From: an uncultured Pseudomonadales bacterium | Lineage (GTDB): Bacteria > Patescibacteriota > Microgenomatia > UBA1400 > PJMF01 | Length of the DNA stretch: 64,000 nt | Direction of reading: 5' to 3' | NCBI GenBank assembly: GCA_964645645.1 | Contig: CAZYBC010000001.1 | Location: 6,064-70,063 of the forward strand | Shown: piece by piece, positions 1 through 59,635 of the stretch | Layout: every line of letters begins with the position of its first letter | How positions within the stretch are numbered: position 1 is the stretch's first letter | Notes under the pieces: generated by a model | Database searches by the model: none | What the model was told of the DNA's origin: nothing | The model's input: only the letters and a program-made list of their open reading frames with translations | Position numbers and translations under genes: made by a program

Positions 1-1907
1 ATTTCATCGTTGTCTGCTTCATTTAGAGATTGCTCAAACTTGGAAATACGCCCAGCCAGTGAAGCAAGACCATCTTCGTCAATCGTTCGTAATGCCGCTT
101 TTTCAAGTAAAGACTTGAATGATACAAAAGGCTGGCGTTCTAAGGTTCTTGAGTCAGTCTTAATACTCTCCGTCACTCCCACAGCATCAAAAATCACGAA
201 TCTATTTTTGTATTCAGCGTCAGGTGTTACTGCTTTTAAGTCATCTTCGCCAATTGTGCGAGTACCACGACCCTTCATCTGTTCAAAGTACACCCGAGAC
301 TTAACATCACGCATGAAGATAAGACATTCTAGAGGCTTGATATCAGTACCAGTCGAAATCATGTCCACTGTAACTGCAATGCGAGGGAAATATGAGTTGC
401 GGAAACTCTGAATCAACTCCTCTACATTTTCGCCCGTTCGATAAGTAATCTTTTTAGCAAAGTCATTGCCCTTGCCAAACACCTCACGCACAATATGCAC
501 GATCTCCTCTGCATGGTTGTCGTCTTTAGCAAAAATTAAAGTTTTAGGTACAGTCTCACGGTCAGGGTAAATATCAGGCAACCAGTTTTTGAAGACTTTA
601 ATAACTGTTCTTATCTGGTCTGGTGCTACCACACTTCTATCAAGCTGGCTGGCTTCGTAAGTTAGTGCCTCGTCCAACTTCTCCCATCTGACTTTGCGAG
701 TCTCACGATTGCGCACATCAACAAATGTACCCTCATCAATGGTATTGCCCTCTTCACCAATTTGGGTCTTAATGCGATACACATCGTAGCCAACATTGAT
801 TCCATCGGCGACCGCTCGTTCATGCGAGTACTCCATGATGAGATTGCTGTTAAAGAATCCAATGGTCTGTTTTGATGGTGTGGCAGTCAATCCGATTAAA
901 TGAGCATCGAAGTATTCAAGAACTTGTCGCCATAAATTGTAGATGGAGCGGTGACACTCATCAGTCACAATAAAATCAAATGCTTCGATGGGAAGTTGAG
1001 GATTATATTCGACAGGCACTTTGTCTTCGTATGTGAACTCAGGAGCGTTGTCAAATTGAGATGTTTCCTCAAGTGACTCATCAAACTCTGGGTTCCCAGA
1101 AAGAATTGAGTACATGCGTTGAATAGTTCCAATACAAACTTTACTTACTGGATCAATGCTTGGGCTTTTAAGGTGTTGAACATTGTATAGCTCGGTAAAC
1201 TTACGACCATCATCAGGGATAGTAAACTTTTGAAACTCTTTGAGTGTTTGTCTGCCTAGATTTCCTCGGTCAACTAAGAATAAAACTCGTTTGGCTTTAC
1301 CAAACTTGAGCAAGCGGTAAATGAACGAAACAGCGGTGAATGTTTTTCCACTTCCCGTAGCCATTTGAAGTAATGCCCGAGGATCATCTTTAGCAAGCGA
1401 CCTTTCTAAATTAGTGACTGCCTCAATTTGGCAACCACGAAGACCATACACATTGAGTTCTGGATAATTTTGTAAACGCTTGCGCAGTGTTTCTTCTTCC
1501 TGCAACCACTCCTGTATTGTCTCTGGTTTGTGAAAGGCAAACAATCGCCTCGATCTTGGTTGTGGGTCTCGTTCGTCTCTAAAAAAAGTTTCTGATCCAG
1601 TGCTTTCGTATGCAAAAGGGAGATGTTCATCAACTTTTGGTAAGTTGGCATCCGTGCTTGTTATGTACTTGCCTGATTGTTCTGCGACACCGCTAAGAGT
1701 CGTACCAGCAGGCTTTGCTTCAACCACACCCACTGCTTTGCGATCAACAAACAGCATGTAATCGGCGGGACCTTTTTGTGTTGGGAACTCGCGAACAGCA
1801 ACCCCAAGTTTCGCCCCTAGATTTAATCTAGAACGATCTTGTATATCCCATCCTGCTTGAATGAGCAATTTATCAATGTCTTGTCGAGCCTTTTCTTCTG
1901 GTGTCAT
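1..1907 (-). CDS. hsdR: Type I restriction enzyme R subunit (HsdR-like). It has an N-terminal PD-(D/E)xK nuclease domain followed by a DEAD/SF2 helicase. The 3' end runs off the window.
   Basis: Manual translation of the minus strand from ATG at 1907 gives an uninterrupted ORF of more than 630 aa. The N-terminus (MTPEEKARQDIDKLLIQAGW...DYMLFVD...VVEAKP) matches HsdR_N/PD-ExK. Helicase motifs are present: QMATGSGKTFT (Walker A), VTDECHRS (DEAD), LTATP and QMKGRGTR. The ORF track omits it because there is no in-window stop. Confidence 0.75.
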   Translation of the reverse strand, partial: MTPEEKARQDIDKLLIQAGWDIQDRSRLNLGAKLGVAVREFPTQKGPADYMLFVDRKAVGVVEAKPAGTTLSGVAEQSGKYITSTDANLPKVDEHLPFAYESTGSETFFRDERDPQPRSRRLFAFHKPETIQEWLQEEETLRKRLQNYPELNVYGLRGCQIEAVTNLERSLAKDDPRALLQMATGSGKTFTAVSFIYRLLKFGKAKRVLFLVDRGNLGRQTLKEFQKFTIPDDGRKFTELYNVQHLKSPSIDPVSKVCIGTIQRMYSILSGNPEFDESLEETSQFDNAPEFTYEDKVPVEYNPQLPIEAFDFIVTDECHRSIYNLWRQVLEYFDAHLIGLTATPSKQTIGFFNSNLIMEYSHERAVADGINVGYDVYRIKTQIGEEGNTIDEGTFVDVRNRETRKVRWEKLDEALTYEASQLDRSVVAPDQIRTVIKVFKNWLPDIYPDRETVPKTLIFAKDDNHAEEIVHIVREVFGKGNDFAKKITYRTGENVEELIQSFRNSYFPRIAVTVDMISTGTDIKPLECLIFMRDVKSRVYFEQMKGRGTRTIGEDDLKAVTPDAEYKNRFVIFDAVGVTESIKTDSRTLERQPFVSFKSLLEKAALRTIDEDGLASLAGRISKFEQSLNEADNDE

Positions 1908-2123
1908 ACATATTTTTCCCTATGGATTGCTTAGGATTTTGTAAGAACAATTATACCAGTGAACACTCGATTAGCGGAACGCAATGTGAAGAATAAAAAA
2001 GTTGATGACTAGCAGATTTAACCTTAAAACAGAGTGAGTATTGTGAGGGTCACCCAATTATAAATAGAAACCATTGAGCCAGTTTTAAGGTTAGTAGAAA
2101 GTTTCAGAGAGCATGAAAACCAG

Positions 2124-2984
2124 TTAATAGTGCTGGTATCCACCATCGTCCTCTTCCTCATCTGTAAGTCTGCCCGATAAGAAATCTGGCAACCATTTCT
2201 GCACTGTACCCATTGTCCAGAACTTCAACCACTCAAACTTCTTCTCGTCTTTGTTTTCCTCAATCCATTCCATGAAGTCTATAATCTGCTTTGGAGTACG
2301 CCCTGCCAAGAACATCGCCCTCGTATAGTTTAAAGCTGTTTTTAGCTCACTACCCCTACGATCCGTACCACTAATTCGTTTATAAGCCATCAATACTTGG
2401 TTGTACTGTATCCGTGGAAACCTTTTGATATTAGGGTTTTTCTTTTTAGGAATCTGCAAATGATTCCCTTTAGTATTAACACTATTATTATTTGTATTAC
2501 TTATATTAAGAGTATTAGTATATATATTATATGGAAGAGTTAGCGATTCTTGATCGGGGACTTTAGAGACTTTTACTAGATTTTTACCGAGTAAATCAAT
2601 GTTTTTTAAATCATCTTCATTGTGAAGATTTTTCTTCATTGTAAACAATTTTCTTACCTGTTCATCGGTGAGTAGCTTTGGGGGAACAGTTAGTTGAAGT
2701 GTAACTTCTCTGCCACTGTGCTTCTTTTTAACCAATCCCAAATCTTCCAGCTGTTTGATTATCTTTCCAAAGTGTTGCTTTGTGATACCAAGGTGGTGTG
2801 CCAATTTAGAACTTACAAGATTTTCTAAGCCAAAGGTGTAATCAAGGAGAATCAACCTTGTATAAGCCCTTAGAAGGGGTGCTTCATCTTGCAGGAGTAG
2901 TAGTATAGCAACAGGTAAACTTATATTCTCAATTGATACACCTTGAGTTGTGTCTGCATGTAGTAATTGTGATTGTTCGGTCAT
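2124..2984 (-). CDS. Winged-HTH DNA-binding protein. It may be a replication or regulatory protein of the integrated element.
   Basis: 286-aa ORF. The N-terminal segment LAHHLGITKQHFGKIIKQLEDLGLVKK resembles a MarR/wHTH fold. The C-terminal domain is unknown. The gene lies inside the G+C-richer segment and overlaps the next ORF (ATGA junction). Confidence 0.5.
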   Translation of the reverse strand: MTEQSQLLHADTTQGVSIENISLPVAILLLLQDEAPLLRAYTRLILLDYTFGLENLVSSKLAHHLGITKQHFGKIIKQLEDLGLVKKKHSGREVTLQLTVPPKLLTDEQVRKLFTMKKNLHNEDDLKNIDLLGKNLVKVSKVPDQESLTLPYNIYTNTLNISNTNNNSVNTKGNHLQIPKKKNPNIKRFPRIQYNQVLMAYKRISGTDRRGSELKTALNYTRAMFLAGRTPKQIIDFMEWIEENKDEKKFEWLKFWTMGTVQKWLPDFLSGRLTDEEEDDGGYQHY

Positions 2985-3436
2985 GAGGTTGCTCCTTCTG
3001 TGTTGGTATCTTGTGATAATTCACTAATTTCATTCTTAATTCTGTGAAGCTCCGCATCTACATCAAATGGTTTAACCCCTTGAATGTCGCGACCAAACTC
3101 TTCTTTACAGTGGATTGAATTAGTGGCTACCCACATTACAAATTGAAGATCTTTCCAGTCAATTTCAAAACCTGCTTGTTGGCGTGCATATATTCTGTAC
3201 AACTGCTTTGCGATCACGGTTGAAGTAATCAAAGAGATGTAAGTCTGAAATGCCCTTATTTGGTCTCTCAAATAGCGACTCTTTTTCATCATTCTGTATA
3301 GCGTTGCTCTTGAAACACCAGATTGCAAACAGGCAATTCTAATAGAAAGCCCCGACCTTAAATATGGCTCTAATTTTGAGACCATTAGGTCTGCTTGTTC
3401 TTTCGTAAATGGTTGATTTCCCTTTTTTCGGTTCAT
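2981..3436 (-). CDS. HTH-domain protein (resolvase/terminase-small-subunit-like HTH).
   Basis: 151-aa ORF. LSIRIACLQSGVSRATLYRMMKK is a classical helix-turn-helix. Confidence 0.5.
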   Translation of the reverse strand: MNRKKGNQPFTKEQADLMVSKLEPYLRSGLSIRIACLQSGVSRATLYRMMKKSRYLRDQIRAFQTYISLITSTVIAKQLYRIYARQQAGFEIDWKDLQFVMWVATNSIHCKEEFGRDIQGVKPFDVDAELHRIKNEISELSQDTNTEGATS

Positions 3437-3497
3437 GTCGATATACTAGCAATTGATGGCTATTGACAGTCTCTCAAATGAGTGTTAAATTGTCAAT

Positions 3498-3812
3498 ATG
3501 AACGAAAATGTAGAAGACAAAATCCGATCACTATCGCTTCCTCAGCTTGAGATCCTAATGGTCATGGCGAAATCAAATGAGCCAGTTTCTACCAGCAGAG
3601 AGATCATGCAGACCACAGGAACAAGCTCTTATACTTTTGGTGCAATCATCTCTCCACTCAGAAGACATAAAGTAGACGGTCAAAGCCTTATAGTCCAAGC
3701 TGGTAAAGATGGCGCAAATGGGGTCAGATGGCAAATAAATGAGAAGCTTGTAAGCAAGCAAGACTTACTAATTTTATTAAATAGCATGGGGGTGCAAATC
3801 GAAGAAAACTAA
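3498..3812 (+). CDS. Small hypothetical protein, possibly a winged HTH.
   Basis: 104-aa ORF transcribed divergently from the HTH gene. No recognisable catalytic motifs. Confidence 0.4.
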   Translation: MNENVEDKIRSLSLPQLEILMVMAKSNEPVSTSREIMQTTGTSSYTFGAIISPLRRHKVDGQSLIVQAGKDGANGVRWQINEKLVSKQDLLILLNSMGVQIEEN

Positions 3813-4078
3813 ACTCAACTCAACACAAGTAAACAAAATTAAGTAATGACGACTTTGCTCGGTCACAAGTAGACCCAGCTTTATATCAAGAAATGACAGT
3901 AGACGATTTAGGTATAAAGTTGGGTTTTTTTGATGCAAAAAAGACATGAGTAATAAAAAAGATAATAAAAAACTAGATGAGGGTCTGCACCAATGGTTCG
4001 AACTGGTATTGGCACACATCCAGCATAAACAAGTAGTACAAAACACAACAAAAAAAGTTGTAAGTGAAAGGAAAGAAT

Positions 4079-4261
4079 ATGCCAAAAGTGTTAATCAAAG
4101 AAATTAGAGGCTACATCGGAGCAAAAGAATACTTTTGCCCCAATTGTGGTGAAGAATTAGGATTGAACGCACACATTGACCATCTGTTAATGGACAGTGA
4201 CCTTGAAAAGATTCAGGCGTACTTTCTCTACTGCAATCGGTGCGGAGAAAAGATCGAGTGA
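4079..4261 (+). CDS. Small zinc-ribbon protein (two CxxC pairs).
   Basis: CPNCGEE...CNRCGEK. The ATG at 4079 is preceded by GAAAGGAAAG (Shine-Dalgarno). The ORF track starts earlier, at GTG 4064. Confidence 0.45.
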   Translation: MPKVLIKEIRGYIGAKEYFCPNCGEELGLNAHIDHLLMDSDLEKIQAYFLYCNRCGEKIE

Positions 4262-4422
4262 AACCTTTTGAAGTTGAGCCAAATCAAACCTGAAAATAAA
4301 ATATAGGTATATAAAAAAAGAGGCTGTGTCCGTCTAAAGAAACAACCTCTTTTACATTACAAACAGCGTTTCCGCCGTTAGTGAATATAATATCACACAC
4401 GACGGAGCCTAGAAAGGAAGCT

Positions 4423-4926
4423 ATGACAACGGGCTTTGTATCCGTCGGAAGACGCCATTTAGAAATTGACCCCACAGATGTGGCAGTTAGAGATTACTTC
4501 GGAGTATCCCAACTATTCCGCTACTCCCTCGCTTTTTCCGAAAAAGCATACGACCAAACATTGATACTTGTTCCAGGGCATGATTGGGTACTTCATCCAG
4601 ATATAGCGGTACCTGACGACTTGAACCCCAACCTTAGAGGACAAGACTTGAACCTACAAGATCAAACTCAGTGGTTTTCCAGCATTGCAGATCAGATTCG
4701 TGAGTATTGCCCTGCTGAATCTGAATTATTTTTCCATTCTGGGAAATGGTTTGACCAGCTATTCACCTATCTCAGTCAACCAGATCCGATTTCAGGAAGT
4801 CCAACCTGTTATACCTTCCACACGCCAATGCGAGATCAACATTTAAGAATAGGAAAACAGTTGGCGTTCTATAAGTCGATGGTCGGGCAATTACCCTCAG
4901 TAAAAAATGAAAGGAGGGCTAAATGA
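4423..4926 (+). CDS. Hypothetical protein translationally coupled to the serine recombinase. It could be an accessory or directionality factor.
   Basis: ATG at 4423 is preceded by GAAAGGAAG. Its stop overlaps the recombinase start (ATGA at 4923-4926). Confidence 0.5.
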   Translation: MTTGFVSVGRRHLEIDPTDVAVRDYFGVSQLFRYSLAFSEKAYDQTLILVPGHDWVLHPDIAVPDDLNPNLRGQDLNLQDQTQWFSSIADQIREYCPAESELFFHSGKWFDQLFTYLSQPDPISGSPTCYTFHTPMRDQHLRIGKQLAFYKSMVGQLPSVKNERRAK

Positions 4927-6491
4927 ACAACAACGGAGCTAATACCGCCTATGCATACTGTCGAGTAAGTACAGACCGCCAAGCCAAAGAAGGATTTTCA
5001 CTTGAACAACAAAAGAAGTCCTGTGAACAACTCGCCAAAAGTCATTCAATTAAAATACTCGATTTTTATATCGATCGAGGAGAAACCGCCACTGCCTCGA
5101 ACCGCAAACAGTTTATGCAGATGTTAGAAGACTGTGAGCGCAAAGAAGTGAAGTACATCTTGGTATATCATACCGACCGATTTGCAAGAAATAGCCTAGA
5201 CCACCTCGTAATTAAGGACAGGTTAGCAAAACTTAACATTGCACTTCTGTCAGTCACCCAACCAATGATTGACTCATCTCCAGAGGGTAAGTTGCTCGAC
5301 ACTATGATGGCTTCCATCAACCAATTTTACAGTGACGATCTATCTAGAAAAACAATGCGTGGCATGTATGGTCGCTGGGAAAAGGGCTGGTGGGTATCTG
5401 GTGCACCACACGGCTATATGAATATTAATAAAGAAAATAGAATCACTAAAACATCTTTTACAGTCGAGAAGCAAAAGTACCTAGACTCGCTAGGTCGACC
5501 AATTATGCCAATTGAACAAGACCCTTTCGTAGCACCTTACATCAAGCAAGCATTTGAATTGTACGCCACAAATAACTACTCATATTTTAATCTGGGTCAA
5601 TACTTATTTGAAAAAGGACTAAAGACAGCAAATGGTAAACCCTTAGCCCACAGCACCATTCACCAGATCATAACGAACAGTTTTTATTTTGGAAAAATGC
5701 GCTGGAACAATGAAGAGAGGATGGGAAAACATGAACCACTTATTGATGAGGCACTTTTCAAACACTGTCAATTGATCGCAGCTCAAAAAAGGCACTTCAT
5801 CATTCGTCAACGCAAACATGACTTCTTACTGCGTGGTGTAGTTTTCTGCAATAGGTGTGGTCTGCGGTATACGGCCGAGTGGCACAAAATAAACTCTACT
5901 AGCTCAGACAAAATAGCCTATTACCACTGTGCTAAACGCCAGCCATGTAAATCCCCTTATGTAGAGATGGAAGAACTTGAATCTCTAGTTGAGAAACAAC
6001 TGCGTAAAGTTAAGTTCACCGATGAGTTCATCCAATTACTCAGTGACAAGGTAAAAGAGTACTTAGAGAATCAAGGATCCCGTAATAGTGAGGTGGAACA
6101 AATTCTAGTTAAACGCCGAGCAGAACTCAAAAAACAGAAAAGTGAGTTACTGTCTTACTTGGTTAACAAAGTGATTGATAAGGATGACTTTGCCGAGAAA
6201 AAAGCCGAGATTGAGAATGAAATTGAAGGTATCAATGAAGAGGTTGGTAAGCTAGATCGAACCAGCAATTTCGATTTTGACCTACTAGAGGAGGTACTAA
6301 AGTTAACTATGGACATTCCAGCCACCTACAATGACGCACCTCCAGAGCTCAAGAGACAGTATTTGAAGTTCTTCTATAATAAGGTGAAAGTGGACAACAA
6401 AAAAATTATAGCAGTTGAATTTTCTGATTTATTACTTGAGCTAATTTCTTTTAAGCGTCTTATAATAATCAGTAGAAGGCTCCCCGGGTAG
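4923..6491 (+). CDS. Large serine recombinase (resolvase/invertase catalytic domain, recombinase domain and zinc ribbon).
   Basis: YAYCRVSTDRQ catalytic serine motif. Length 522 aa. A C-terminal Cys cluster (CNRCG...YHCAKRQPC) is present. A strong SD (AAAGGAGGG) precedes the start. The stop TAG at 6489-6491 lies inside the 3' end of tRNA-Asn. Confidence 0.85.
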   Translation: MNNNGANTAYAYCRVSTDRQAKEGFSLEQQKKSCEQLAKSHSIKILDFYIDRGETATASNRKQFMQMLEDCERKEVKYILVYHTDRFARNSLDHLVIKDRLAKLNIALLSVTQPMIDSSPEGKLLDTMMASINQFYSDDLSRKTMRGMYGRWEKGWWVSGAPHGYMNINKENRITKTSFTVEKQKYLDSLGRPIMPIEQDPFVAPYIKQAFELYATNNYSYFNLGQYLFEKGLKTANGKPLAHSTIHQIITNSFYFGKMRWNNEERMGKHEPLIDEALFKHCQLIAAQKRHFIIRQRKHDFLLRGVVFCNRCGLRYTAEWHKINSTSSDKIAYYHCAKRQPCKSPYVEMEELESLVEKQLRKVKFTDEFIQLLSDKVKEYLENQGSRNSEVEQILVKRRAELKKQKSELLSYLVNKVIDKDDFAEKKAEIENEIEGINEEVGKLDRTSNFDFDLLEEVLKLTMDIPATYNDAPPELKRQYLKFFYNKVKVDNKKIIAVEFSDLLLELISFKRLIIISRRLPG

Positions 6492-6551
6492 GACTCGAAC
6501 CTACAACCTTGAAGTTAACAGCTTCCTGCTCTGCCATTGAGCTACCGAGGA
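6480..6551 (-). tRNA. tRNA-Asn (anticodon GTT).
   Basis: Hand-folded cloverleaf. Acceptor TCCTCGG/CCGGGGA, D-arm GCTC-AATGGCA-GAGC, anticodon loop CTGTTAA (U33, GUU, A37), T-arm GTAGG-TTCGAGT-CCTAC, discriminator G. The acceptor and anticodon loop match the E. coli tRNA-Asn pattern. Confidence 0.85.
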
Positions 6552-6603
6552 TTATTAAAGAACAGACCAAATTATACCAGTCAATTTTTCAAAATACCAG
6601 TCA

Positions 6604-7299
6604 TTAATCCCAACTTTTTTGGCTATCGCCAGTGATCGGAATTTTTTCCCCTAAAAATTTTGGTTTGGCATGGAAAAGGATATCTTTAAAGGCTTTAATT
6701 TTAGCGAAAAATTCGCGGAAGTTGTTATATTGTTGGCCATAATAAATGCGCTTGTCTGCGCTTATCCCCACAGCTTTAATGCCTAAACTATTAGCCAAGT
6801 ATAAGCTTCTATTTAAATGGAAATTTTGGCTAACAATAATTAAAGATTCCACATCAAAGATATAATCTGCTCGATAAACGCTATCGTAAGTGTCAAAGCC
6901 GGCGTGATCCATAAAAATATCTTCGGCTTTAACGCCTTTTTCTAAAAGGTAATTTTTAATGGTATTAACTTCATCATAATTTTTGCGGCCATGATCGCCA
7001 CTGATTAAAATCTTTTTTACTTTAGCGTTTTGATATAACTCAATAGCCGTGTCAGCACGATCTTGCATAATTGGACTTAACTTACCATTGTCATAAACTA
7101 AAGAACCTAAGAGCAGCGCAGTTTGCGCAGCCGGCACGGTTTTAGAATCAGCATAAATCTGGGCTTGCGTAGATTGATCAAGATAAAAATTAATTAAAAA
7201 TGGAATTGTGCCCAGCAAAAACATAAGAACTGTTAAACTTAAAAACAGCTTCTTTTTAGCTTGCAAAATTTGTTTAAAAATCGCTTTTACCTTTTTCAT
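6604..7299 (-). CDS. SanA/YdcF (DUF218) family membrane protein.
   Basis: N-terminal TM segment. KKILISGDHGRKNYDEVNTIKNYLLEKGV...DHAGFDT is typical of DUF218. Confidence 0.6.
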   Translation of the reverse strand: MKKVKAIFKQILQAKKKLFLSLTVLMFLLGTIPFLINFYLDQSTQAQIYADSKTVPAAQTALLLGSLVYDNGKLSPIMQDRADTAIELYQNAKVKKILISGDHGRKNYDEVNTIKNYLLEKGVKAEDIFMDHAGFDTYDSVYRADYIFDVESLIIVSQNFHLNRSLYLANSLGIKAVGISADKRIYYGQQYNNFREFFAKIKAFKDILFHAKPKFLGEKIPITGDSQKSWD

Positions 7300-8391
7300 T
7301 TACTCTAAAAAGTCTTGGAGTTTTTTACGGCGGCTAGGGTGTTTGAGTTTGCGTAAGGCTTTAGCTTCAATCTGACGAATCCGTTCACGGGTAACGCCAA
7401 ATTTACGGCCAACTTCTTCTAGGGTCATACTTTTATTGCCCATCAAGCCAAAACGCATTCTCAGCACAGCAGCTTCGCGGTCTGAAAGGGCTGATAAAAC
7501 CTCTTCCACATTTTCCCGCAACATTTGTTTGCTGGTGGAATCGTAAGGACTAATTTGCTTATCATCAGCAATAAAGTCACCTAAAATGCTATCATCTTCG
7601 CCATCACCAACTGGAGTTTCCAAAGAAGTGGTATTTTGAGAAATCTTAAGAATTTCGCGAACTTTATCAGGTTCAAGCTCCATTTTTTCGCCAATTTCTT
7701 CTGGAGTAGGTTCTCGGCCTAAATCTTGCATTAATCTTCTGGCTGTTCTCATCAATTTATTGATGGTTTCAACCATATGAACTGGAATACGGATTGTCCG
7801 GGCTTGATCAGCAATAGAACGAGTAATAGCTTGACGAATCCACCAGGTGGCGTAAGTAGAAAATTTAAAACCTTTGGTCCAATCATATTTTTCTACGGCT
7901 CTAATTAAACCTTTATTACCTTCTTGAATTAAATCAAGGAAAGTTAAACCACGGCCAATGTATTTTTTAGCAATAGACACCACTAATCTTAAGTTAGCAT
8001 CAATTAATTTTTTCTTGGCTTTTTCACTACCAGCCTCTACTTCTTGAGCTAACCGAATTTCTTCTTCACGACTTAACAGTGGAATCCGGCCAATCTCCTT
8101 GAGATACATGCGGACAGGATCAGAAACCCCAACACTACCTAGTGAAGATAAAACATCTAATTCTTGTTGAAGATTGTCGCTTTCTTCTTCTTTAGTACTG
8201 GAAACTGATTCAAAGATATCAACTCCAGCAGTCATGATATCATTGTAAAAATCGTCTAATTCTTCTAAATAAAGTTCTGGCTCAACAAAAGTGTCCAACA
8301 CATCTTCTTGAGTTACAAAACCCTGACTTTTAGCTTTTTTGAGCAAACTTTTAATATCTTCTGCTAAAGCCTTAGGAAGTTTTTTTGCCAT
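7300..8391 (-). CDS. rpoD: RNA polymerase sigma-70 factor RpoD.
   Basis: Region 2 is [49 protein letters not shown]. Region 4 is [28 protein letters not shown]. Confidence 0.92.
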
Positions 8392-8580
8392 AATACATAT
8401 TCTCTAATTGAAGTTAATTGATAAATTACGTTTTATTTCCAGCGATTAGCTGCGAATGCCTTTAGGCTTAATAGATTGAACGTAATTTTTTAAAAAACAA
8501 AAACAATGCCGATTTTCATCGGATTCTATAATTATAATGGAAAATAGAAGATTTGTTAAGCTTAATTTACAATTGCTAAT

Positions 8581-11318: not shown

Positions 11319-11885
11319 TTAGCTAAATTCTTCGTTGCTCTCCATGTCTTTTTCAATCAAATCTCTAAGATAAACAGAGCGAGGAATTTTTTTATTTTTA
11401 GCAATCCAATCTAAATAGTTTTGATGTCTAGGTGAAATGAAAAAGTTAAAACGAGTATCTTGTTGTTCAGCGGCATAATCAATAGCAGTGGAAAGCACTT
11501 CAATTAAATTAGCTTCTGAATATTCAATCAACTGTAATTTATCATTGACGATACCTTCTACAAAACTAGGACGAAAATCTTTTAAATAAAGAGCAATGAC
11601 TGGTTTATTAAGCTGTAAAGATCTTTCCATGATATAACCCATAGATAAACTATTCATGGAAACTTCAAGAACAATTAAATCAGCTTTTTTAATATATTCG
11701 ATAGTTTTTTTATAATGATCAACTCGACTTTCATGAGAACCATTATAAAACTTTTCTCGGTATTCAAGACTAGTTATTCCTCTTAAATGACTATGACCTA
11801 GTCTTTCAATCTCTTTATAAATGGCGTCGTAATATTTACCGAACTCTTTAATGCCTCGTCCGGATTGATCAAAATAAATTTTCAT
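11319..11885 (-). CDS. Nucleoside 2-deoxyribosyltransferase-like domain fused to a C-terminal ribbon-helix-helix (RHH) DNA-binding domain.
   Basis: ADLIVLEVS...GYIMERSLQLNKPVIAL matches the NDT/Rcl-like fold, with a Glu in the GY.ME motif. The C-terminal RFNFFISPRHQNYLDWIAKNKKIPRSVYLRDLIEKDM has a beta-alpha-alpha RHH pattern. The start was chosen at MKIYF (ATG 11885). The ORF track extends to 11918. Confidence 0.5.
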   Translation of the reverse strand: MKIYFDQSGRGIKEFGKYYDAIYKEIERLGHSHLRGITSLEYREKFYNGSHESRVDHYKKTIEYIKKADLIVLEVSMNSLSMGYIMERSLQLNKPVIALYLKDFRPSFVEGIVNDKLQLIEYSEANLIEVLSTAIDYAAEQQDTRFNFFISPRHQNYLDWIAKNKKIPRSVYLRDLIEKDMESNEEFS

Positions 11886-16869: not shown

Positions 16870-16880
16870 CTTATGCTATT

Positions 16881-16956
16881 AGACTTACTGCGAAATAAAA
16901 TTTCGTAGCGAAAAATTGATATTTAAGAGCGAAAAGGTTTGTTTCGCAGTAAGTCT
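16881..16956. repeat. MITE/REP-like hairpin repeat, copy A (76 bp), with 15-bp perfect terminal inverted repeats.
   Basis: AGACTTACTGCGAAA...TTTCGCAGTAAGTCT. Internal GCGAAAA subrepeats are present. The copy is intergenic between dus and the C39-like gene. Confidence 0.85.
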
Positions 16957-16963
16957 ATTATAA

Positions 16964-22824: not shown

Positions 22825-23475
22825 TTAATTTAAGCTCTGTAATTTTTGAAAAGCTGTATATAATTCTTTTTTTACCACAGATGTATTTATCTCTAAAGAA
22901 TGTTTTTCAAATAATTGCTGTAACTGATGATGTTGCTGAGAATGATTTTGCCAATAGCTAGGACTAATTTGCAGTACTTTTAATAATAAATCTCCAGGGT
23001 ATAAGTCACCTTCAACCAAAATATTTTTGTCTAAAATTTCCAAAGCAATCGGTATAATAATGTCTAAAGCCAAACTTTGGCCAATTAATAAACGTAATTG
23101 TTCGATACTTAAATTTCTCAATGGAATTTTGCCACAAGCTTTAATTTTATTAATTAATTCTGATTCAAAATCAAATTTTTCCCAATCCGATCCCAATAAT
23201 TGTTCTAAAGTTTTAAAACGCTCATCATTGGGAGGATTCTTAACATTTATGAATCTAGATTCTAACGTTCCCAATGAATGAGGAGCCAATAAATTTTTTA
23301 GCTCTTGCTCATCAATGATTTTTTGTTCATCCTGACCGGTTTGATAATTTCTTAGCCAATACTGATATTGGCCATTACCTAAATAACGTAAACCCCACTC
23401 ATCTTCTTGATGACGAGTATAAAACTCTACACCTGGCTGTTGCAGACGATTTAAAAAGGAGTTAAGGGTTAACAT
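22825..23475 (-). CDS. Hypothetical protein.
   Basis: 216-aa ORF with no recognisable motif. Confidence 0.45.
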   Translation of the reverse strand: MLTLNSFLNRLQQPGVEFYTRHQEDEWGLRYLGNGQYQYWLRNYQTGQDEQKIIDEQELKNLLAPHSLGTLESRFINVKNPPNDERFKTLEQLLGSDWEKFDFESELINKIKACGKIPLRNLSIEQLRLLIGQSLALDIIIPIALEILDKNILVEGDLYPGDLLLKVLQISPSYWQNHSQQHHQLQQLFEKHSLEINTSVVKKELYTAFQKLQSLN

Positions 23476-25980: not shown

Positions 25981-26270
25981 TCTCTATTTGCGTAATTAAT
26001 ATGCAAATAAATTAACATTGAAAAATCAAGTTATTTTTTAATAACCAGATCTTTTTCTAAAATTGACTAAGTCAAGATAAAAAGTTATAATAATTTACTT
26101 TTGAAACAGAGTCTAATAACTAGCAAAAGTCAAGAACAATAAATGAAATTAGCATTAGTAAATACAAATAAAATCTTTTATTCTTCTAGGGGTCGAGCTA
26201 AATAAGTCTTTCTTATTTATTACTCCACTCTTTTTATTGATTTAAGCTCAACGTGTTTCAAAGGGACAGT

Positions 26271-26307
26271 AGACTTACTGCGAAATAAAATTTCGTAGCG
26301 TAAGTCT
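26271..26307. repeat. MITE/REP-like repeat, copy B (37 bp, internally deleted).
   Basis: The first 30 nt are identical to copy A and are joined to the last 7 nt (TAAGTCT). Located between recA and rny. Confidence 0.8.
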
Positions 26308-26336
26308 AATTATCTAAACTGTTTAAGAAAGGCATT

Positions 26337-34096: not shown

Positions 34097-35587
34097 ATGA
34101 AAAAACAGCTCGTGATTGTTTTTAGTCTTATTATTATCAGTTTAACTTTAAGCTGTCTGAGTTTATTTCTACCTCTATATTTATATACTAAAGATTTAAT
34201 TATCCACAGCCAAAATTGGCAACAAACTTTTTTTCAAAACGACAATAAAGAAAATTTAGCACCAATAATTCTTCAAGATCTAAAATCATTAACAAAACAA
34301 CTTAATTATTTAAAAACTGTTCATCAAATTTTTGGCGGTGATAGCCAAGCCCAATTAGCTATTCAACAACTTTATGATCATTTGACTCAATTACAAACTT
34401 TATTAGATTATTTTTTTTCAGACCAAAAATCCATTTTAGCAGTTTTACAAAATAGCCAAGAAATTAGAGCCACGGGTGGCTTTATGGGCTCTTATGCCCG
34501 AATTGACTTAGAAAATGGACAACTTAAAAACCTAGTTTTTAATGATATTTATGAAGCTGATGGCCATTTTAATGCTTATCAAACACCACCTCCAGGAATC
34601 AAAGAATATTTAGCCAATGGTCAAAGCTGGCGCTTACCAGATAGTAATTGGTCACCAGATTTTCCAACTAGTAGCCAAAAAATTTTACAATTTTTTGCTG
34701 ATTGTAATGAAAAAAATGTTCATAATTTATTAGCTGTTAATCTAAATTTGATGGAAGAATTATTAAAAATTACTGGGCCAATCTACCTTCCTGATTATCA
34801 AATCAATGTAACAGCGGAAAATTTTGCTCAAGTAGCGAGAAGTGAACGCAGCGAATTTTTTCCTGGTACTCAACAAAAAAAATTCTTTTTTACTTTATTT
34901 TTTAATCAATTAAAATTCAAATTAGCTAAACTCAATAAAGACCAGCAACTCGCTGTTATTAATTTAATTATCAAACAAATTGAAAATAAAAATTTACAAT
35001 TTTATTCATCAAACTCACAAATTCAAGAAATTCTGTCTAAGTATCAATTAACTGGGGCCATGACTCAAATTTCTGAGGCTAATTATTTATTTTTAGTAGA
35101 ATCAAATGTGGGCATTAATAAAGCCAACGCTAAAATCGAACGCAACGTTCAACTCAAACTTAATGGTCAACAACTAGACGTTATTATTAATTTTTCTAAT
35201 CAAAATACTGTTCCACCTAAACAAATGGTTATTAATCGCTTTATTTCTAAAGCTGATAATTTAAGCTATGTCAATTATTTTAGAGTCATTTTACCGGCTG
35301 ACGCTTTTTTAAATCAAGCTATGATAGATCAACAAATCGTTACTGACCTCGATGAAAATTTAATTACTAACAGCCAAGGACAACTGTTTAAGCAATATGG
35401 TTTTTTAGTTGTGGTCAGTGAACAAACAAAAAATTCTGTTAATCTAAAAATCACTTATCCAGAAATTAAAACTCAACTTTTTATTCAAAAACAAGCTGGA
35501 TTACCAGCCACTGATTATCAATTACAAACTCCTTGGCAACAACTTGAATTTTCCCTAACTAAGGATAAACTGATACAATTGCAATAA
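34097..35587 (+). CDS. DUF4012-domain membrane-anchored protein.
   Basis: N-terminal TM segment. QNSQEIRATGGFMGSYARIDLENGQLKNLVFNDIY is the DUF4012 hallmark. Confidence 0.65.
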   Translation: MKKQLVIVFSLIIISLTLSCLSLFLPLYLYTKDLIIHSQNWQQTFFQNDNKENLAPIILQDLKSLTKQLNYLKTVHQIFGGDSQAQLAIQQLYDHLTQLQTLLDYFFSDQKSILAVLQNSQEIRATGGFMGSYARIDLENGQLKNLVFNDIYEADGHFNAYQTPPPGIKEYLANGQSWRLPDSNWSPDFPTSSQKILQFFADCNEKNVHNLLAVNLNLMEELLKITGPIYLPDYQINVTAENFAQVARSERSEFFPGTQQKKFFFTLFFNQLKFKLAKLNKDQQLAVINLIIKQIENKNLQFYSSNSQIQEILSKYQLTGAMTQISEANYLFLVESNVGINKANAKIERNVQLKLNGQQLDVIINFSNQNTVPPKQMVINRFISKADNLSYVNYFRVILPADAFLNQAMIDQQIVTDLDENLITNSQGQLFKQYGFLVVVSEQTKNSVNLKITYPEIKTQLFIQKQAGLPATDYQLQTPWQQLEFSLTKDKLIQLQ

Positions 35588-35590
35588 CCC

Positions 35591-36685
35591 ATGACTAATA
35601 TTGATCAAACCACTCTCAACCATCTAATTAAAAAAGCGGAAAGCCTTATTGAAGACGGTCTTTTAATGGAAAAAGTTGAACAACATAAGATTTTACAAGC
35701 ACAAACCCTCGCCCCAGATTTTTGGCAAAAAGTTGATAGCAAACAAATTATGCAAAAAATTGCTCATTTGGAAGATGAGATTGCTCAAATTAAAGAATTA
35801 CAAAAATTACATGATGATATTTTAGCTTTTGAAGAACTTAAAACCCAACTAAATGAAACTGAATTACAAAGTTTAGAATTAGAATTAAGTAAAAACTGTA
35901 CACAGCTAAAAAGATTACTTAAAACTAGAGAATTAAAACAATACTTAGCTGGTAAATTTGATACTAAAGGAGCAATTTTATCAATTCATTCTGGACAAGG
36001 TGGGACTGAAGCCATGGATTGGGCAGAAATTTTATCCAGAATGTATATTCGTTTTTTTGAAAAAAAAGACTGGCCTTATCGCTTTGTTAGTGAATCACGG
36101 GGTGAAGAAGCTGGCATTAAAGAAGTTGTTTTTGAGATTAATGTTCCTTATGCTTATGGTTATCTAAAAAAAGAACAAGGTACTCACCGTTTAGTCAGAC
36201 TCAGCCCTTTTAATGCGGATAGTCTTCGTCAAACCTCCTTTGCTTTAGTAGAAGTTTTACCTTTAATTGATGATGATACTAGCGTAGAAATTAAAGACAG
36301 TGATCTGGCTTGGAATTTTACCAGAGCCGGTGGTGCGGGTGGTCAAAGTGTTAACAAACTCAATACGGCTGTGGAATTAACTCATTTACCCACGGGAATT
36401 GTCGTCAACTGCCGTGAAGAACGTAAACAATCACAAAATAAAGAACGAGCCTTGCAGATTTTGAAAGCTAAATTAGCCGCTTTACAAGAAGAACAACAAG
36501 CTGCTGAATTAGCTCAGGCAAAAGGCAAATATACTCCAGCTAGTTGGGGAACCCAAATTAGAAACTATGTACTTCATCCCTATCAATTAGTAAAAGATAC
36601 TCGCACTAAAATTGAAACTGCCGATACTCAAGGAGTACTGGCTGGAGATTTAGATCAATTTATTGAAGCAGAAATTAAACTTTAG
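35591..36685 (+). CDS. prfB: Peptide chain release factor 2. The ORF is continuous with no programmed +1 frameshift.
   Basis: SPF tripeptide (RF2-specific) and GGQ motif (GGAGGQSVNK). Confidence 0.9.
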   Translation: MTNIDQTTLNHLIKKAESLIEDGLLMEKVEQHKILQAQTLAPDFWQKVDSKQIMQKIAHLEDEIAQIKELQKLHDDILAFEELKTQLNETELQSLELELSKNCTQLKRLLKTRELKQYLAGKFDTKGAILSIHSGQGGTEAMDWAEILSRMYIRFFEKKDWPYRFVSESRGEEAGIKEVVFEINVPYAYGYLKKEQGTHRLVRLSPFNADSLRQTSFALVEVLPLIDDDTSVEIKDSDLAWNFTRAGGAGGQSVNKLNTAVELTHLPTGIVVNCREERKQSQNKERALQILKAKLAALQEEQQAAELAQAKGKYTPASWGTQIRNYVLHPYQLVKDTRTKIETADTQGVLAGDLDQFIEAEIKL

Positions 36686-36761
36686 TTAATTTTTATTACC
36701 TTTGCACAATTTATAGCAGTTTGCATTAGCCAGCCACTAAATTTTTTAGTATGATAAATAT

Positions 36762-37340
36762 ATGCAAAAATTAGATTTATCTAACACTCCTAATTTTGAT
36801 AATAACCAAGCTGGTCTTGACGAATCAGCTCAATTCAGTCAAAATCTAAATTCGTCAGTTAATACTGATTCTATTAATCAATCTGGATCTGCAACTATGA
36901 ACCAATCTCAAAAAACTCTCATGATTATTGCTTTAAGTTTAGCTGTTATAGCTGGAACTGCAACTGGTTATGGAGCATACAGATTAAAAAACAAAAACAC
37001 AATTAGTGGCGGAAAAAATTCAATTCAAAAAGTAGCAACTGATAATATTAAAAATGGTGATATTTTTGGTGTTCATGATGAAAAAACTTTTGCAGATAAT
37101 GCTCAAGGCTATTTAGCTAAGGGTGGAGTTGATGGAGAAGGTTCTCACCAATTATTAAGAGCTGGTGGAGTAAGCCAAACTGTTTATTTAACTTCTTCCG
37201 TTACTGATTTAGATAAATTTGTAGGAATGGAAGTCAAGGTTTCTGGTGAAACTTTTAAAGGTCAAAAAGCTGGTTGGTTAATGGATGTTGGCCGTGTAGA
37301 GATTATTAATACTCAGGCCGAAGCTCCAATTGAAGAATAA
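36762..37340 (+). CDS. Hypothetical membrane-anchored protein.
   Basis: 192-aa ORF with a TM segment LMIIALSLAVIAGTATGYGAY. Confidence 0.5.
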   Translation: MQKLDLSNTPNFDNNQAGLDESAQFSQNLNSSVNTDSINQSGSATMNQSQKTLMIIALSLAVIAGTATGYGAYRLKNKNTISGGKNSIQKVATDNIKNGDIFGVHDEKTFADNAQGYLAKGGVDGEGSHQLLRAGGVSQTVYLTSSVTDLDKFVGMEVKVSGETFKGQKAGWLMDVGRVEIINTQAEAPIEE

Positions 37341-37421
37341 TTGATTTTTATTAAAAAACTATTTACAAATTAATAGCAAAATCAAACTTGCTAGTAGTTA
37401 AAAAGAAATGGTTTAATAAAC

Positions 37422-38354
37422 TTGCCTATGTTGAAATTTTCTAATGTTAGTAAAATTTTTGGAAACACGACTGCCCTTGATAATCTTAATTTTGGAGTAG
37501 ATGATCACGACTTTCTTTTAATTACTGGGCCATCTGGGAGCGGTAAAACTACTCTAATGAAATTATTAATTAGAGAATATTTACCTACCAAAGGTGAAAT
37601 TTACTATTTAGGCAATCCTTTAAATAAACTTCCTCGTAGACAAATCCCTCAGCATCGCCGACAAATTGGCGTAGTTTTTCAAGATTATAAATTGTTACCA
37701 GATTATAATATTTGGGAAAATATTGCTTTACCCCTTTATATTGCTAATAAAAGTGAAACCGAAATTGAACAACGGGTAACTGATTTACTAAAATTAGTCA
37801 AATTAACTGATAAAGCTTTGGCCTTTCCTAGTCAGCTTTCTGGCGGAGAAGCCCAACGAATTAGTATTGCTCGTTCTTTAGCAACTGGCCCTAAATTAAT
37901 TTTTGCCGATGAACCAACCGGTAATCTTGACCCAGCCATTAGTCTTGAAATCGCAGAACTATTACAAAAAATTAATCAATTAGGGACTACAGTTTTACTT
38001 GCTACCCATGATCAAGTAATTTTAGACTACCTTAAAAAAACTAGAAAAATTCGTTTAGAAAAAGGCAAATTAGTAGAAGATACACAACCCAAAATAAAAG
38101 TTGAAGAAATTAAACTTGATGATAAACCGCTAGAAAAAAAAGCGGTAGATAAAAAACCTGAACCTAAAAAAAATATTGAGAATAAAGCTGAAACCAAAAA
38201 AATAATTACTACTAAAGAAAACGAAGCTAAAAAACCAATCAATGAACCAGATAAAAAAATAAAAACTGATAAAGAAGAACCTAAGAAAAAAACTAGAGCT
38301 TTTTTAGGTTTTAATAAACTTAGACAACTCTTTGGGAAGAAAAAATCATTATGA
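37422..38354 (+). CDS. ftsE: Cell-division ABC ATPase FtsE with a roughly 90-aa Lys/Glu-rich C-terminal extension.
   Basis: GPSGSGKTT (Walker A), LSGGEAQRISIARSL (signature), ILFADEPTGNLD (Walker B). Residues 220-310 are low-complexity K/E-rich. Confidence 0.85.
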   Translation: MPMLKFSNVSKIFGNTTALDNLNFGVDDHDFLLITGPSGSGKTTLMKLLIREYLPTKGEIYYLGNPLNKLPRRQIPQHRRQIGVVFQDYKLLPDYNIWENIALPLYIANKSETEIEQRVTDLLKLVKLTDKALAFPSQLSGGEAQRISIARSLATGPKLIFADEPTGNLDPAISLEIAELLQKINQLGTTVLLATHDQVILDYLKKTRKIRLEKGKLVEDTQPKIKVEEIKLDDKPLEKKAVDKKPEPKKNIENKAETKKIITTKENEAKKPINEPDKKIKTDKEEPKKKTRAFLGFNKLRQLFGKKKSL

Positions 38355-41449: not shown

Positions 41450-41637
41450 GTTGTCCTTTGCTATTTTATAAAATAAAAGCATTAACTTGCTTTCTTTTTT
41501 TATTATATATGAAAAAGAATAATAATTTCCAGATGTTATTCTCAGCATTTTTTTGTATAATTGAAAAGTTAAACCTAAACTTCTCAAAAAGTTAACTAAA
41601 AATTTGTTACAATAGCCAAGCAAATTAAAATTTTAAT

Positions 41638-41672
41638 AGACTTACTGCGAAATAAAATTTCGTAGTAAGTCT
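41638..41672. repeat. MITE/REP-like repeat, copy C (35 bp minimal hairpin).
   Basis: AGACTTACTGCGAAAT-AAA-ATTTCGTAGTAAGTCT is a 16-bp stem with one G.T pair. It lies 8 bp upstream of tRNA-Ser(GCT). Confidence 0.8.
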
Positions 41673-41680: not shown

Positions 41681-41768
41681 GGAAGCGTCGCATAGTGGCC
41701 AATTGCACAGGTTTGCTAAACCTGAGTCCTTTTGGGCTTCGTGGGTTCGAATCCCACCGCTTCCGCCA
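41681..41768 (+). tRNA. tRNA-Ser (anticodon GCT), CCA encoded.
   Basis: Acceptor GGAAGCG/CGCTTCC, anticodon stem CAGGT/ACCTG with loop TTGCTAA, long variable arm, T-arm GTGGG-TTCGAAT-CCCAC, then G-CCA. Confidence 0.85.
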
Positions 41769-41770
41769 AT

Positions 41771-41800
41771 AAAAAAACTACCGAAAGGTAGTTTTTTTTT
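41771..41800 (+). terminator. Intrinsic terminator after tRNA-Ser(GCT).
   Basis: AAACTACC-GAAA-GGTAGTTT hairpin followed by a T9 run. Confidence 0.75.
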
Positions 41801-44152: not shown

Positions 44153-44261
44153 CTTATCTATTAAATAACTTTTTAAAAAGGTCTGTCAAAAGGGAAATAC
44201 ATTTAATAATATTCTGTTATATAATAGATATGTTTCTGCCCAAATCCCAAAAGGGAAACAA

Positions 44262-45329: not shown

Positions 45330-45339
45330 ATAAAAAAAT

Positions 45340-47497: not shown

Positions 47498-47499
47498 AT

Positions 47500-47685: not shown

Positions 47686-47732
47686 GAATTTTTCAAAGTA
47701 TCTATACTTAGATGCTGATCTCTCTAGCTATC

Positions 47733-47762
47733 AAAAGCGCCAATACATTTGGCGCTTTTTTG
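47733..47762 (+). terminator. Intrinsic terminator.
   Basis: AGCGCC-AATACATTT-GGCGCT followed by T6. Confidence 0.7.
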
Positions 47763-47900: not shown

Positions 47901-49187
47901 ATGCTATTTAATCTAAGCACAACCTACCGGTCTAAGAGTAACTTTTATGAACACAATCTAAAATATATTAAGTGGTTGGAGTTAGCTGGTTCATTGATGT
48001 TTTTAATCCCAGTTTGGGTAAATTTTGAATTGCGTTATCTCAATTTAGCTCAATTAGCTATCATTGAAGCGGCAATTTCATTTACTCAATTAATTTTAGA
48101 ATTACCTACTGGCGCTTTAGCGGATTTATTAGGTAGAAAAAAAACTATTACTTTTGGCTATTTATTGCATGCCACTGGTTTTTTATTTTTCTGGTCTGCC
48201 AAAACTTTTAATGGTTTTTTATTTAGTTCACTGTTTTTTGGCTTTGGTGAAGCATTAATTAGTGGCGCTAAAGAAGCTTTAGTATTTGATACATTAAAAC
48301 AAGCTCATCAAGAAAAAACTTTTACCAAATTAATGAACTTTTTACAAAAGCGGTTTTATTGGGGAATGGCAATTGCTACTTTAATTGGTGGATTAACTTA
48401 TCAAATTAATATTCATTTGCCACTTTTCTTAAATATTTTAGCAATTTTAACTTGCGCCTATTTTGCTTCTCAATTACGTGAACCAATTTTGGATAGTGAA
48501 AAATTTACTTTAGCTATTTATCTTAAACAAACTAAGCAAGGTTTTAGTGAATTATTTAAAACACCTAAATCTCGTCGCATTTCTTTTTACTACATTTTAT
48601 TAGCCGCAGTGAGTTGGCCAATGGTAATTAGTTTAAAAAATATTGCCATGAGTAAAGTGGGTTTAACGGAATTACAAATTGGTTTAATTTTACCAGTGAT
48701 GAATTTATTAAATGTTTACTTTTTTCATTTTATGTTAAAAAAGCAAGCCTTTAAAAATTTGCCTGCAACTTTTATTGCTTTAGCTTTGGTAGCTGGTCTA
48801 AGTTGGTTGGGGTTAGCAGCTAACTTTTCTATTTTCATGGTTTTAATCGTAGCCTTTACCTTGTCATTTATTTCTAGTTGCCGCTGGAATGTTATTGGGG
48901 AATTAACTAATAGTTGTTATTCTAGTAAAAATCGAGCCACTGCTATTTCTACTTTAAGCATGATTATTGGCTTAAGTTATGGCAGCGTGATGATTTTATT
49001 TAGTATTTTCAGTAATTCAACAATTAATCCTGTGATTTTAATTGCTTTATTTATGGCCGGTTTAGCTGGCATAGTTTTACTACCTTTAGCAATTAATTTA
49101 AGCAATAACTTAGCTAACAAAAAAATCAATTTTGAACCTCAAATAGAAAATCCTTTAGAAAAAAGTATTAGCCTTACTGCAAAATAA
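47901..49187 (+). CDS. MFS transporter.
   Basis: TGALADLLGRKKTI (MFS motif A), 12 predicted TM segments, and a strong SD (AAGGAGG) upstream. Confidence 0.75.
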   Translation: MLFNLSTTYRSKSNFYEHNLKYIKWLELAGSLMFLIPVWVNFELRYLNLAQLAIIEAAISFTQLILELPTGALADLLGRKKTITFGYLLHATGFLFFWSAKTFNGFLFSSLFFGFGEALISGAKEALVFDTLKQAHQEKTFTKLMNFLQKRFYWGMAIATLIGGLTYQINIHLPLFLNILAILTCAYFASQLREPILDSEKFTLAIYLKQTKQGFSELFKTPKSRRISFYYILLAAVSWPMVISLKNIAMSKVGLTELQIGLILPVMNLLNVYFFHFMLKKQAFKNLPATFIALALVAGLSWLGLAANFSIFMVLIVAFTLSFISSCRWNVIGELTNSCYSSKNRATAISTLSMIIGLSYGSVMILFSIFSNSTINPVILIALFMAGLAGIVLLPLAINLSNNLANKKINFEPQIENPLEKSISLTAK

Positions 49188-49388
49188 AATTTCGTAGCGA
49201 AGAATTGATATTTAAGAGCGAAAAGGTTTGTTTTCGAACGAAGTAGTAGCTGTGCTACTTCGAGCGAGAAAACAACCTTTACAGCCTTAAATAGCAATTC
49301 TGTAGCCGAAAGGCTTATTTTACAGTAAGGCTATTTAACAACAAGGCCTTAATAGCCTTGCTACAAAATTTTATTTCTCAGTAAGTCT
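49170..49388. repeat. MITE/REP-like repeat, copy D (219 bp composite).
   Basis: The first 64 nt are about 95% identical to copy A. The right end, GCTACAAAATTTTATTTCTCAGTAAGTCT, is the inverted left TIR. Inside is a nested element with AGCCTTACTG/CAGTAAGGCT ends and a long nested palindrome (CGAAGTAGTAGC-TGTG-CTACTTCG). Confidence 0.8.
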
Positions 49389-49439
49389 AACATTTCTGTT
49401 ATGATAATTAAGAATCAAAAATAGAGAAAGAAAGGACAG

Positions 49440-56698: not shown

Positions 56699-56736
56699 CA
56701 ATAAAAAAGTATTTAGCCCGCCCTAGTAAAGGAAAT

Positions 56737-59630: not shown

Positions 59631-59635
59631 AAACT

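Follow-up and report, generated by a model that had tools for sequence, protein, structure and literature searches.

A dispersed, TA-flanked hairpin repeat family, probably of the MITE type, in a Patescibacteria genome

We identified a near-identical hairpin, TAGACTTACTGCGAAAT-AAA-ATTTCGYAGTAAGTCTA, at four non-homologous intergenic sites of a 64-kb stretch of DNA (hereafter the window, meaning the whole stretch analyzed), where chance predicts none. The window belongs to a Patescibacteria (CPR) MAG of ~32% GC. Five elements of 37-165 nt, all without an ORF, occupy these sites. We consider it probable (roughly 0.6) that they form a family of non-autonomous, TA-flanked MITEs of the Correia/RUP kind that is mobilized in trans and transcribed together with the genes downstream. 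Genomes of Patescibacteria are small and gene-dense and are usually seen as poor in mobile DNA. A full-text literature search found no description of MITE- or REP-type repeats in this group, and the MITE/Correia-like family described here is apparently the first of its kind to be reported for it.

Results

An initial annotation of the window had noted a sequence recurring at four or more intergenic sites. A search with the 30-mer AGACTTACTGCGAAATAAAATTTCGTAGCG, allowing up to 3 mismatches, matched the plus strand at each of the sites named there (16881, 26271, 41638 and 49170) and the minus strand at 49359-49388, giving five matches in the window versus 0 across 100 dinucleotide-preserving shuffles. 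The 16-mer arm matched 8 times with 0.96 matches expected, and arm-loop identity between the five elements at the four unrelated loci was 94-100%. No further copy in the window emerged from mismatch searches or from a covariance model based on the hairpins. The inverted repeat proper is about 17 bp long (TAGACTTACTGCGAAAT) rather than ~30 bp as first described, the recurring 30-mer being composed of one arm, the loop and part of the other arm. At the four sites, which were read directly, similarity between copies ends abruptly at a left T and a right A, making the conserved unit one base longer at each end than originally noted. A repeat finder run on the window showed the flanks to be unrelated. 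Because similarity stops immediately beyond the bracketing T...A and the flanks share nothing, the elements are independent copies and not pieces of one larger duplicated segment, the counter-case that the initial annotation had raised.

Site D, which carries two of the elements, was reproduced by independent Logan assemblies (L035, 100% identity; L024, 98.3%) and is thus not an artifact of MAG assembly. Two independent Logan contigs end inside element D1, and L035 begins exactly one base past the start of a 31-mer common to A and D1 (49203-49233). These ends are explained by the behavior of a repeat in a k=31 assembly graph, with no need to invoke extra copies. Empty sites were absent from Logan contigs L024, L034 and L035, which represent the same strain or one that is 98-99% identical.

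Table 1. Positions of the five repeat elements, the rny promoter and the adjoining tRNA gene in the window
Feature	Position	Strand	Supporting data
Element A, medium form, 78 nt including flanking T/A	16880..16957	+	DNA fold -19 kcal/mol, z -6.95
Element B, short form, 39 nt, 2-nt CG bulge	26270..26308	+	Fold -9.8 kcal/mol, z -4.7
Element C, minimal form, 37 nt, 17-bp stem, AAA loop	41637..41673	+	DNA fold -13.4 kcal/mol, z -9.2
Element D1, long form, 165 nt, near-perfect long hairpin	49169..49333	+	Fold -46.3 kcal/mol, z -11.3
Element D2, short form, 37 nt, inverted orientation, decayed stem	49353..49389	-	Covariance-model score 41 bits; z +0.34
rny promoter, sigma-70-type, TTGACT-17-TATAAT	26063..26091	+	11/12 consensus matches; hexamers invariant in three-genome alignment
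tRNA-Ser(gct)	41681..41768	+	ARAGORN; Rfam tRNA model

The elements fall into length classes that share their ends (Table 1). Three of the size variants described earlier, the copies of 76 bp (16881-16956), 37 bp (26271-26307) and 35 bp (41638-41672), were found as described, while the supposed 219-bp copy resolved into a composite of D1, a 19-nt spacer and, on its right, D2. Copy A has terminal repeats (AGACTTACTGCGAAAT and GTTTCGCAGTAAGTCT) that are complementary at 15 of 16 positions, and it contains GCGAAA subrepeats, three of them direct and one inverted. Folding of the DNA, a check that had been proposed, gave strong structures for A, B, C and D1; D2, the one element oriented opposite to the other four, has no stable fold. 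Elements A, B, C and D1 have the 17-bp ends TAGACTTACTGCGAAAT and ATTTCGYAGTAAGTCTA, which in D2 are decayed. Element C reads TAGACTTACTGCGAAAT-AAA-ATTTCGTAGTAAGTCTA, its stem including one G.T pair and its loop measuring 3 nt, and B is a hairpin of the same type with the added bulge. Element A keeps both ends and has 41 extra internal nt relative to C. When D1 is compared with its own reverse complement, 136 of 176 aligned columns match, and its ends, TAGCCTT...AAGGCTA, carry paired changes from the consensus (A-T to C-G at position 4; G-C to A-T at position 13) that preserve complementarity. Across the family, the stem is zoned into conserved outer TAGACTT and inner GAAAT segments and a middle 5 bp that varies between subfamilies.

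Pairwise alignment showed that the short forms derive from the long form by internal deletion. Element A corresponds to D1 minus its center and right half, with TTTCG microhomology at the junction, and C corresponds to A with a further deletion between TTTCGTAG and TTTCGCAG; the breakpoint of B differs slightly from that of C.

A T...A pair brackets all five elements, an arrangement with a probability of ~2e-5 given base composition, and can be read as TA-GACTT...AAGTC-TA. This fits duplication of a TA target, which, as TA is its own reverse complement, would look the same as an inverted repeat 1 bp longer. The left flanks (GCTAT, GACAG, TTTAA, AGTAT and CTTAA) have no tetra- or pentanucleotide in common. 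Insertion of the IS200/IS605 type is characterized by a fixed 5' tetra- or pentanucleotide target, no inverted-repeat ends and no duplication; here the flanks differ and the inverted-repeat ends are clear.

Genes make up 90% of the window, and all elements lie in the remaining 10%, with D1 overlapping a coding end. Each copy is 7-50 nt from a downstream gene or tRNA start. Element A is situated between the stop of a Peptidase_C39_2 gene (16964, minus) and the dusB ATG (16869, minus), 10 nt from the latter; being on the plus strand between two minus-strand genes, it is antisense to local transcription. Element B is in the 5' UTR of rny, which encodes RNase Y, with 28 nt between its end and the ATG at 26337. 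The conserved rny promoter is ~180 nt upstream, which places B inside the transcribed leader. The best matches of this RNase Y are proteins annotated as Patescibacteria, Woesebacteria or Pacebacteria. Element C lies in the leader of tRNA-Ser(gct), stopping 7 nt short of the mature 5' end, and is preceded by promoter-like boxes (TGTTACAAT at 41605-41613; TTGTTA-16-TAAAAT at 41604-41631). An ORF for an MFS transporter (47901-49187) runs into D1, which encodes the last residues of its C-terminus (...EKSISLTAK*) together with the stop, a TAA in the first loop. D2 stops 50 nt short of a 77-aa ORF (ATG at 49440), which in turn precedes mnmA.

The rny leader as a whole (26092-26336, ~245 nt) comprises the promoter and several blocks conserved in the relatives L019, L021 and L023 (72-78% protein identity). 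In every case the ribosome-binding site is immediately preceded by a hairpin whose sequence varies, and the leader may thus be cis-regulatory.

We searched for a mobilizing enzyme and for relatives of the family in databases. As the initial annotation had stated, no cognate transposase is encoded in the window: a Pfam/NCBIfam scan of nearly all window ORFs of at least 80 aa detected neither a transposase nor a RAYT (Y1_Tnp) domain, four ORFs of the recA-rny syntenic block (DUF4012, prfA, ABC-transporter/FtsE-like and ftsX; 34097-39220) being annotated only through precomputed Pfam assignments of their syntenic counterparts. The sole recombinase in the window is a large serine recombinase of an island beside tRNA-Asn. 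No autonomous element or transposase with matching ends was found in the 64 kb of this genome plus ~100 kb of relatives. The pattern CTTACTGMRAAATAAAATTTYG matched 4 loci in GTDB (one genome per species) and 14 in JGI metagenomes, all of them chance matches in coding DNA without a hairpin; this pattern spanned the loop and so could not detect an autonomous IS having only the ends in common. Scans of viral contigs with the core and with both arm variants returned nothing or chance matches only. Rfam at gathering threshold recognized only tRNAs in the whole window, and a permissive scan of 49120-49440 gave 0 matches at E <=1. Two further classes of site were considered and rejected. TAGACT resembles a -10 box and the A junction forms a minus-strand TATAAT, but no matching -35 or scan call supports a promoter role, and the spacing and density of the copies do not fit a LexA/SOS box, an uptake signal sequence or a parS-type site.

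Comparison with relatives showed that two of the four sites are occupied in the window and empty in syntenic relatives. The gene order MFS, 77-aa ORF, mnmA, DUF4153 and onwards is the same in L022, whose MnmA is 65% identical, and the spacer between the MFS gene and the small ORF is there 73 nt long and devoid of an element. The MFS protein of L022 ends ...EKIIEQQIP* versus ...EKSISLTAK* in the window. At the right junction of site D, to the right of D2, TA followed by ACATTTCTGTTATGAT (ACATTTCTGTTATGATAATTAAG) aligns with TA followed by AAATCTGCTATGAT (AAATCTGCTATGATTAATAAG) in L022, the TA being part of the L022 stop codon. The left junction is not clean. The comparison has a look compatible with insertion at a TA. 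Around site A, synteny of the C39 and Dus genes is kept in L025 and L026 (GCA_030596295.1), with spacers of 66 and 94 nt that hold no element. Presence and absence at these orthologous sites lend moderate support to mobility, and only moderate because the relatives are distant (Dus 56-57%, MnmA 65%; overall 56-65% protein identity), such that an element scored as absent could also have been lost or have diverged beyond recognition.

Site B presents a different picture. A hairpin, TAAACTTGTAATGAAGTAAATTTCACTACAAGTCTAA, is found at the same position in L021 (RNase Y 74% identical) and a more diverged version, TAAAATTGTGGTAAT..ATTACTACAATTTTA, in L023 (72%); unrelated hairpins are found there in L019 (78%) and in L036 (Woesebacteria, 67%). 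The related hairpins in L021 and L023 could reflect inheritance and selection rather than insertion. L021, which is the same contig as L025, additionally contains a second exact copy of the arm TAGACTTGTAGTGAAAT, a 70-nt element (TAGACTTGCAACGGAAT...ATCGCTGCAAATCTA) and solo arms upstream of recA and prfA. In ~102 kb of relatives, 17 arm-like 17-mers (<=4 mismatches) were counted versus 4.4 expected, 7 of them in L021. The covariance model, designated R1, disclosed no extra copies in the window, L019, L022, L025 or L026.

Eight hairpins were compared pair by pair. Both sides had changed in 9 of 15 stem pairs, and 87.5% of cells were paired versus 75.7% in shuffles, a value that 0 of 500 shuffles reached; the set had been chosen as hairpins, so this figure carries ascertainment bias and is not unbiased evidence of selection. 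The middle 5 bp, ACTAC/GTAGT in the window, are exactly flipped in L021 (ACTAC to GTAGT). Copies inside one genome are near-identical, versus divergence between genomes.

Two sequences in L036 were recorded separately. Directly after its rny stop, a 64-nt TA-flanked inverted repeat (11609-11672; TAGAGTTATTA...TAATAATTCTA) gave a borderline covariance-model E of 0.004. A solo arm, TAGACTAAACGCGAAATAAA, lies at 8550-8569, 46 nt upstream of recA, and is identical to the window arm plus loop at 17 of 20 positions. Both may belong to the superfamily of the window elements, either as distant or as decayed members.

Discussion

A MITE-type family best accounts for the combination of short, palindromic, non-coding units with identical ends, TA at all five elements, deletion length classes, both orientations, restriction to spacers and gene ends, and absence from orthologous sites. 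We propose that the ancestral form was a DNA palindrome of ~165 nt, represented by D1, with the 17-bp inverted-repeat ends. The 78-, 39- and 37-nt forms, all of which keep both ends, would then have arisen when short direct repeats within this palindrome (TTTCG, TTTCGYAG) slipped. Copies would insert at a TA dinucleotide in AT-rich intergenic DNA, and the transposase that cuts and pastes them is presumably supplied in trans from another part of the genome; an enzyme of the TA-duplicating DDE kind, as in the IS630/Tc1-mariner group, would be the most likely candidate. In a genome that is 90% genic, surviving copies are left directly upstream of genes or on their last codons, and from this position we infer that transcripts carry them as RNA hairpins, within 5' UTRs, a tRNA leader and the spacers between cistrons. 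RNases specific for double-stranded RNA could process such hairpins, or the hairpins could affect mRNA stability.

The closest architectural parallel is the Correia element (CREE, also NEMIS) of Neisseria, the resemblance being one of architecture only. CREE ends begin TATAGTGG..., and the ends and core of the window elements, compared by direct reading rather than computed alignment, appear unlike them. The host phylum is also unrelated, and the shortest form in the window is a bare 17-bp stem-loop with no core. Like the window family, CREE is a non-coding palindrome with terminal inverted repeats and TA at both ends (PMC2649163; PMC10969869). It occurs in length classes of 153-157, 104-108 and 69-73 bp, is found mostly 5' of genes and transcribed with them as a hairpin, sometimes runs into the ends of coding sequences, is a substrate of RNase III and has no transposase of its own (PMC2649163; PMC10969869). 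The window family likewise shows internal-deletion length classes (165, 78 and 37-39 nt), a location 5' of genes where the hairpins would be co-transcribed, occasional overlap with coding ends and no transposase of its own. Effects demonstrated for CREE include promoter creation, IHF binding and cleavage by RNase III. RUP of Streptococcus pneumoniae and other IS630-derived MITEs are similar in their small size, terminal inverted repeats, TA flanks and intergenic clustering, and also in inserting beside one another, as D1 and D2 appear to have done (PMC10969869). They differ in that a parent IS is known for RUP; none was found for the window family in the 64-kb window and ~100 kb of relatives. 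The parent with ends matching RUP is IS630-Spn1.

Alternatively, the hairpins could be host-functional structures kept by selection or gene conversion, acting either as 5'-leader RNA hairpins that guide or block RNase III or RNase Y (for example in rny autoregulation) or as palindromic protein sites. In favor of such a role, every copy is close to a gene or tRNA start, and a hairpin occupies the position of B in the long conserved rny leader of five genomes, three of these hairpins being family-related with compensatory changes. The stem also combines a conserved outer 7 bp and loop-proximal 5 bp with a co-varying middle 5 bp. The G.T wobble of B and C is tolerated on the transcribed strand. 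However, the genes that would be served (dusB, rny, tRNA-Ser and the 77-aa ORF) are unrelated, orientation relative to transcription is mixed (A and D2 are antisense), and the arms are 3 to 131 nt apart, which does not suit a fixed operator. Moreover, orthologous sites A and D are empty in relatives, D1 overwrites a coding end, D2 is decaying and no Rfam family matches. We therefore regard a host function as an unlikely origin of the family.

A REP/REPIN-like element moved as single-stranded DNA by a RAYT (IS200/IS605-type Y1) encoded elsewhere, with the hairpin and GTAG/CTAC as recognition signal, is a still less probable alternative. The initial annotation had called the repeats MITE/REP-like; a dispersed, non-coding hairpin family with common ends and size variants was borne out, and the REP/RAYT flavor was not. 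The similarities are those of short imperfect extragenic palindromes, the short forms being 35-39 nt long, with arms that co-vary as REPIN biology predicts. GTAG is present in the right arm of the window copies and GTAG/CTAC in the L021 copies, where the exact flip of the middle segment looks as if the motif matters, and four of five copies share one absolute orientation, a bias that is not significant. In contrast to REP hairpins, GTAG lies inside the stem (positions 8-12 of 17) and the foot is TAGACTT, the 5' flanks have no common tetranucleotide (CTAT, ACAG, TTAA, GTAT, TTAA), and the window scan revealed no Y1_Tnp ORF and hence no RAYT. Invariant TA flanks and a 165-nt palindromic master form with a deletion series are more MITE-like.

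With similarly low odds, the hairpin might extend beyond selfish DNA and serve across the Patescibacteria clade as a signal that a protein recognizes in single-stranded DNA or RNA. What keeps this idea in consideration is the conservation of TAGACTT and GAAAT, a middle 5 bp that co-vary or flip, and a family hairpin at the rny-leader position in three lineages. These features would be in keeping with either a RAYT-like domesticated system or a signal that spreads to new genes, for hairpin-guided processing and autoregulation by an RNase (Y or III).

That the copies are intrinsic (rho-independent) terminators sharing sequence by coincidence is highly improbable. The hairpins are stable, and A and D1 come directly after or over an upstream stop codon, but no copy has a T-run on its 3' side, a terminator scan called none at any element, the stems are AT-rich, and in B and C the hairpin has a promoter on one side and its gene on the other; the earlier suggestion of a terminator role was not supported. 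Chance similarity, segmental duplication or a guide-RNA array (CRISPR or TIGR-like) has almost no prospect of being correct, despite units of 35-39 nt and the standing of Patescibacteria as known hosts of TIGR-Tas systems (PMC12045711), given the 0 shuffle matches, the unrelated flanks, and copies that are dispersed singletons rather than tandem arrays of 5-15 units. A TIGR array was rejected against its published description (PMC12045711), as the window has no tandem units, its stems are fully paired without UG...CCA box motifs, and it contains neither a Nop-domain (Tas) nor a Cas gene.

If a MITE-type family has been active recently, these hairpins would serve as a strain-typing marker and help to explain breaks in MAG contigs, of which there are two cases here. 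They would also be a source of regulatory and coding-end variation, as illustrated by the new C-terminus of the MFS transporter and by hairpins in the rny and tRNA leaders. Otherwise, the family represents an ordinary bacterial phenomenon.

Additional features of the window and its relatives

Several other regions attracted attention. Positions 1-6551 have a GC content of 0.39-0.40 versus ~0.32 elsewhere and are a probable integrated element. This region encodes a large serine recombinase (4923-6491; Resolvase, Recombinase and Zn_ribbon_recom domains) that overlaps the 3' end of tRNA-Asn (6478-6551, minus) by 14 nt, in addition to weak HTH/MarR-like ORFs and a DUF6884 protein. In L019, the segment between a tRNA and recA (578-8284) looks like an integrative element, with genes for a LexA-like repressor, HTH_17, an N6_N4 methyltransferase, a ResIII helicase and a 561-aa serine recombinase; L021 has no counterpart of this block at that position.

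The lowest GC of the window (0.258) occurs at 44001-48000. Genes for a family 2 glycosyltransferase, a radical SAM protein and a DIT1_PvcA-like protein lie in this stretch, possibly a surface-modification cluster that was acquired or is variable. The best matches of MnmA (49694-50731) are from Clostridia/Bacillota (55-58%) and not Patescibacteria, with the exception of one relative at 65%, which suggests horizontal acquisition or rarity of the gene in the clade. A CdiI_3 domain (contact-dependent inhibition immunity protein; E 5.5e-23) is encoded at 22825-23475 on the minus strand, with no obvious adjoining toxin gene identified.

A second tRNA-Ser 3' end, TCCCACCACTTCCGCCAATAAAAAA, is located at 56684-56708, 250 nt downstream of tRNA-Ser(gga), and is 96% identical to 41752-41776. 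Together with upstream GCGRAAATTATACTGTC..AGCGAGCAA it is also conserved at L022 1-60, and neither it nor the preceding ~200 nt matched Rfam; it could be an attachment-site remnant or an unrecognized tRNA-like RNA. Just upstream of type I R-M genes, a 103-nt tRNA on the plus strand (57867-57969) scored 44.7 bits with the Rfam tRNA model and was missed by ARAGORN. It appears to have an insert of ~30 nt after the anticodon stem, possibly an intron. The type I R-M region itself (58038-63953), in which hsdR is absent within the window, comprises hsdM (58038-59630), a gene for a 761-aa AAA_13 ATPase (59636-61921), hsdS (61925-63154) and, next to it, a gene for a KilA-N protein (63147-63953).
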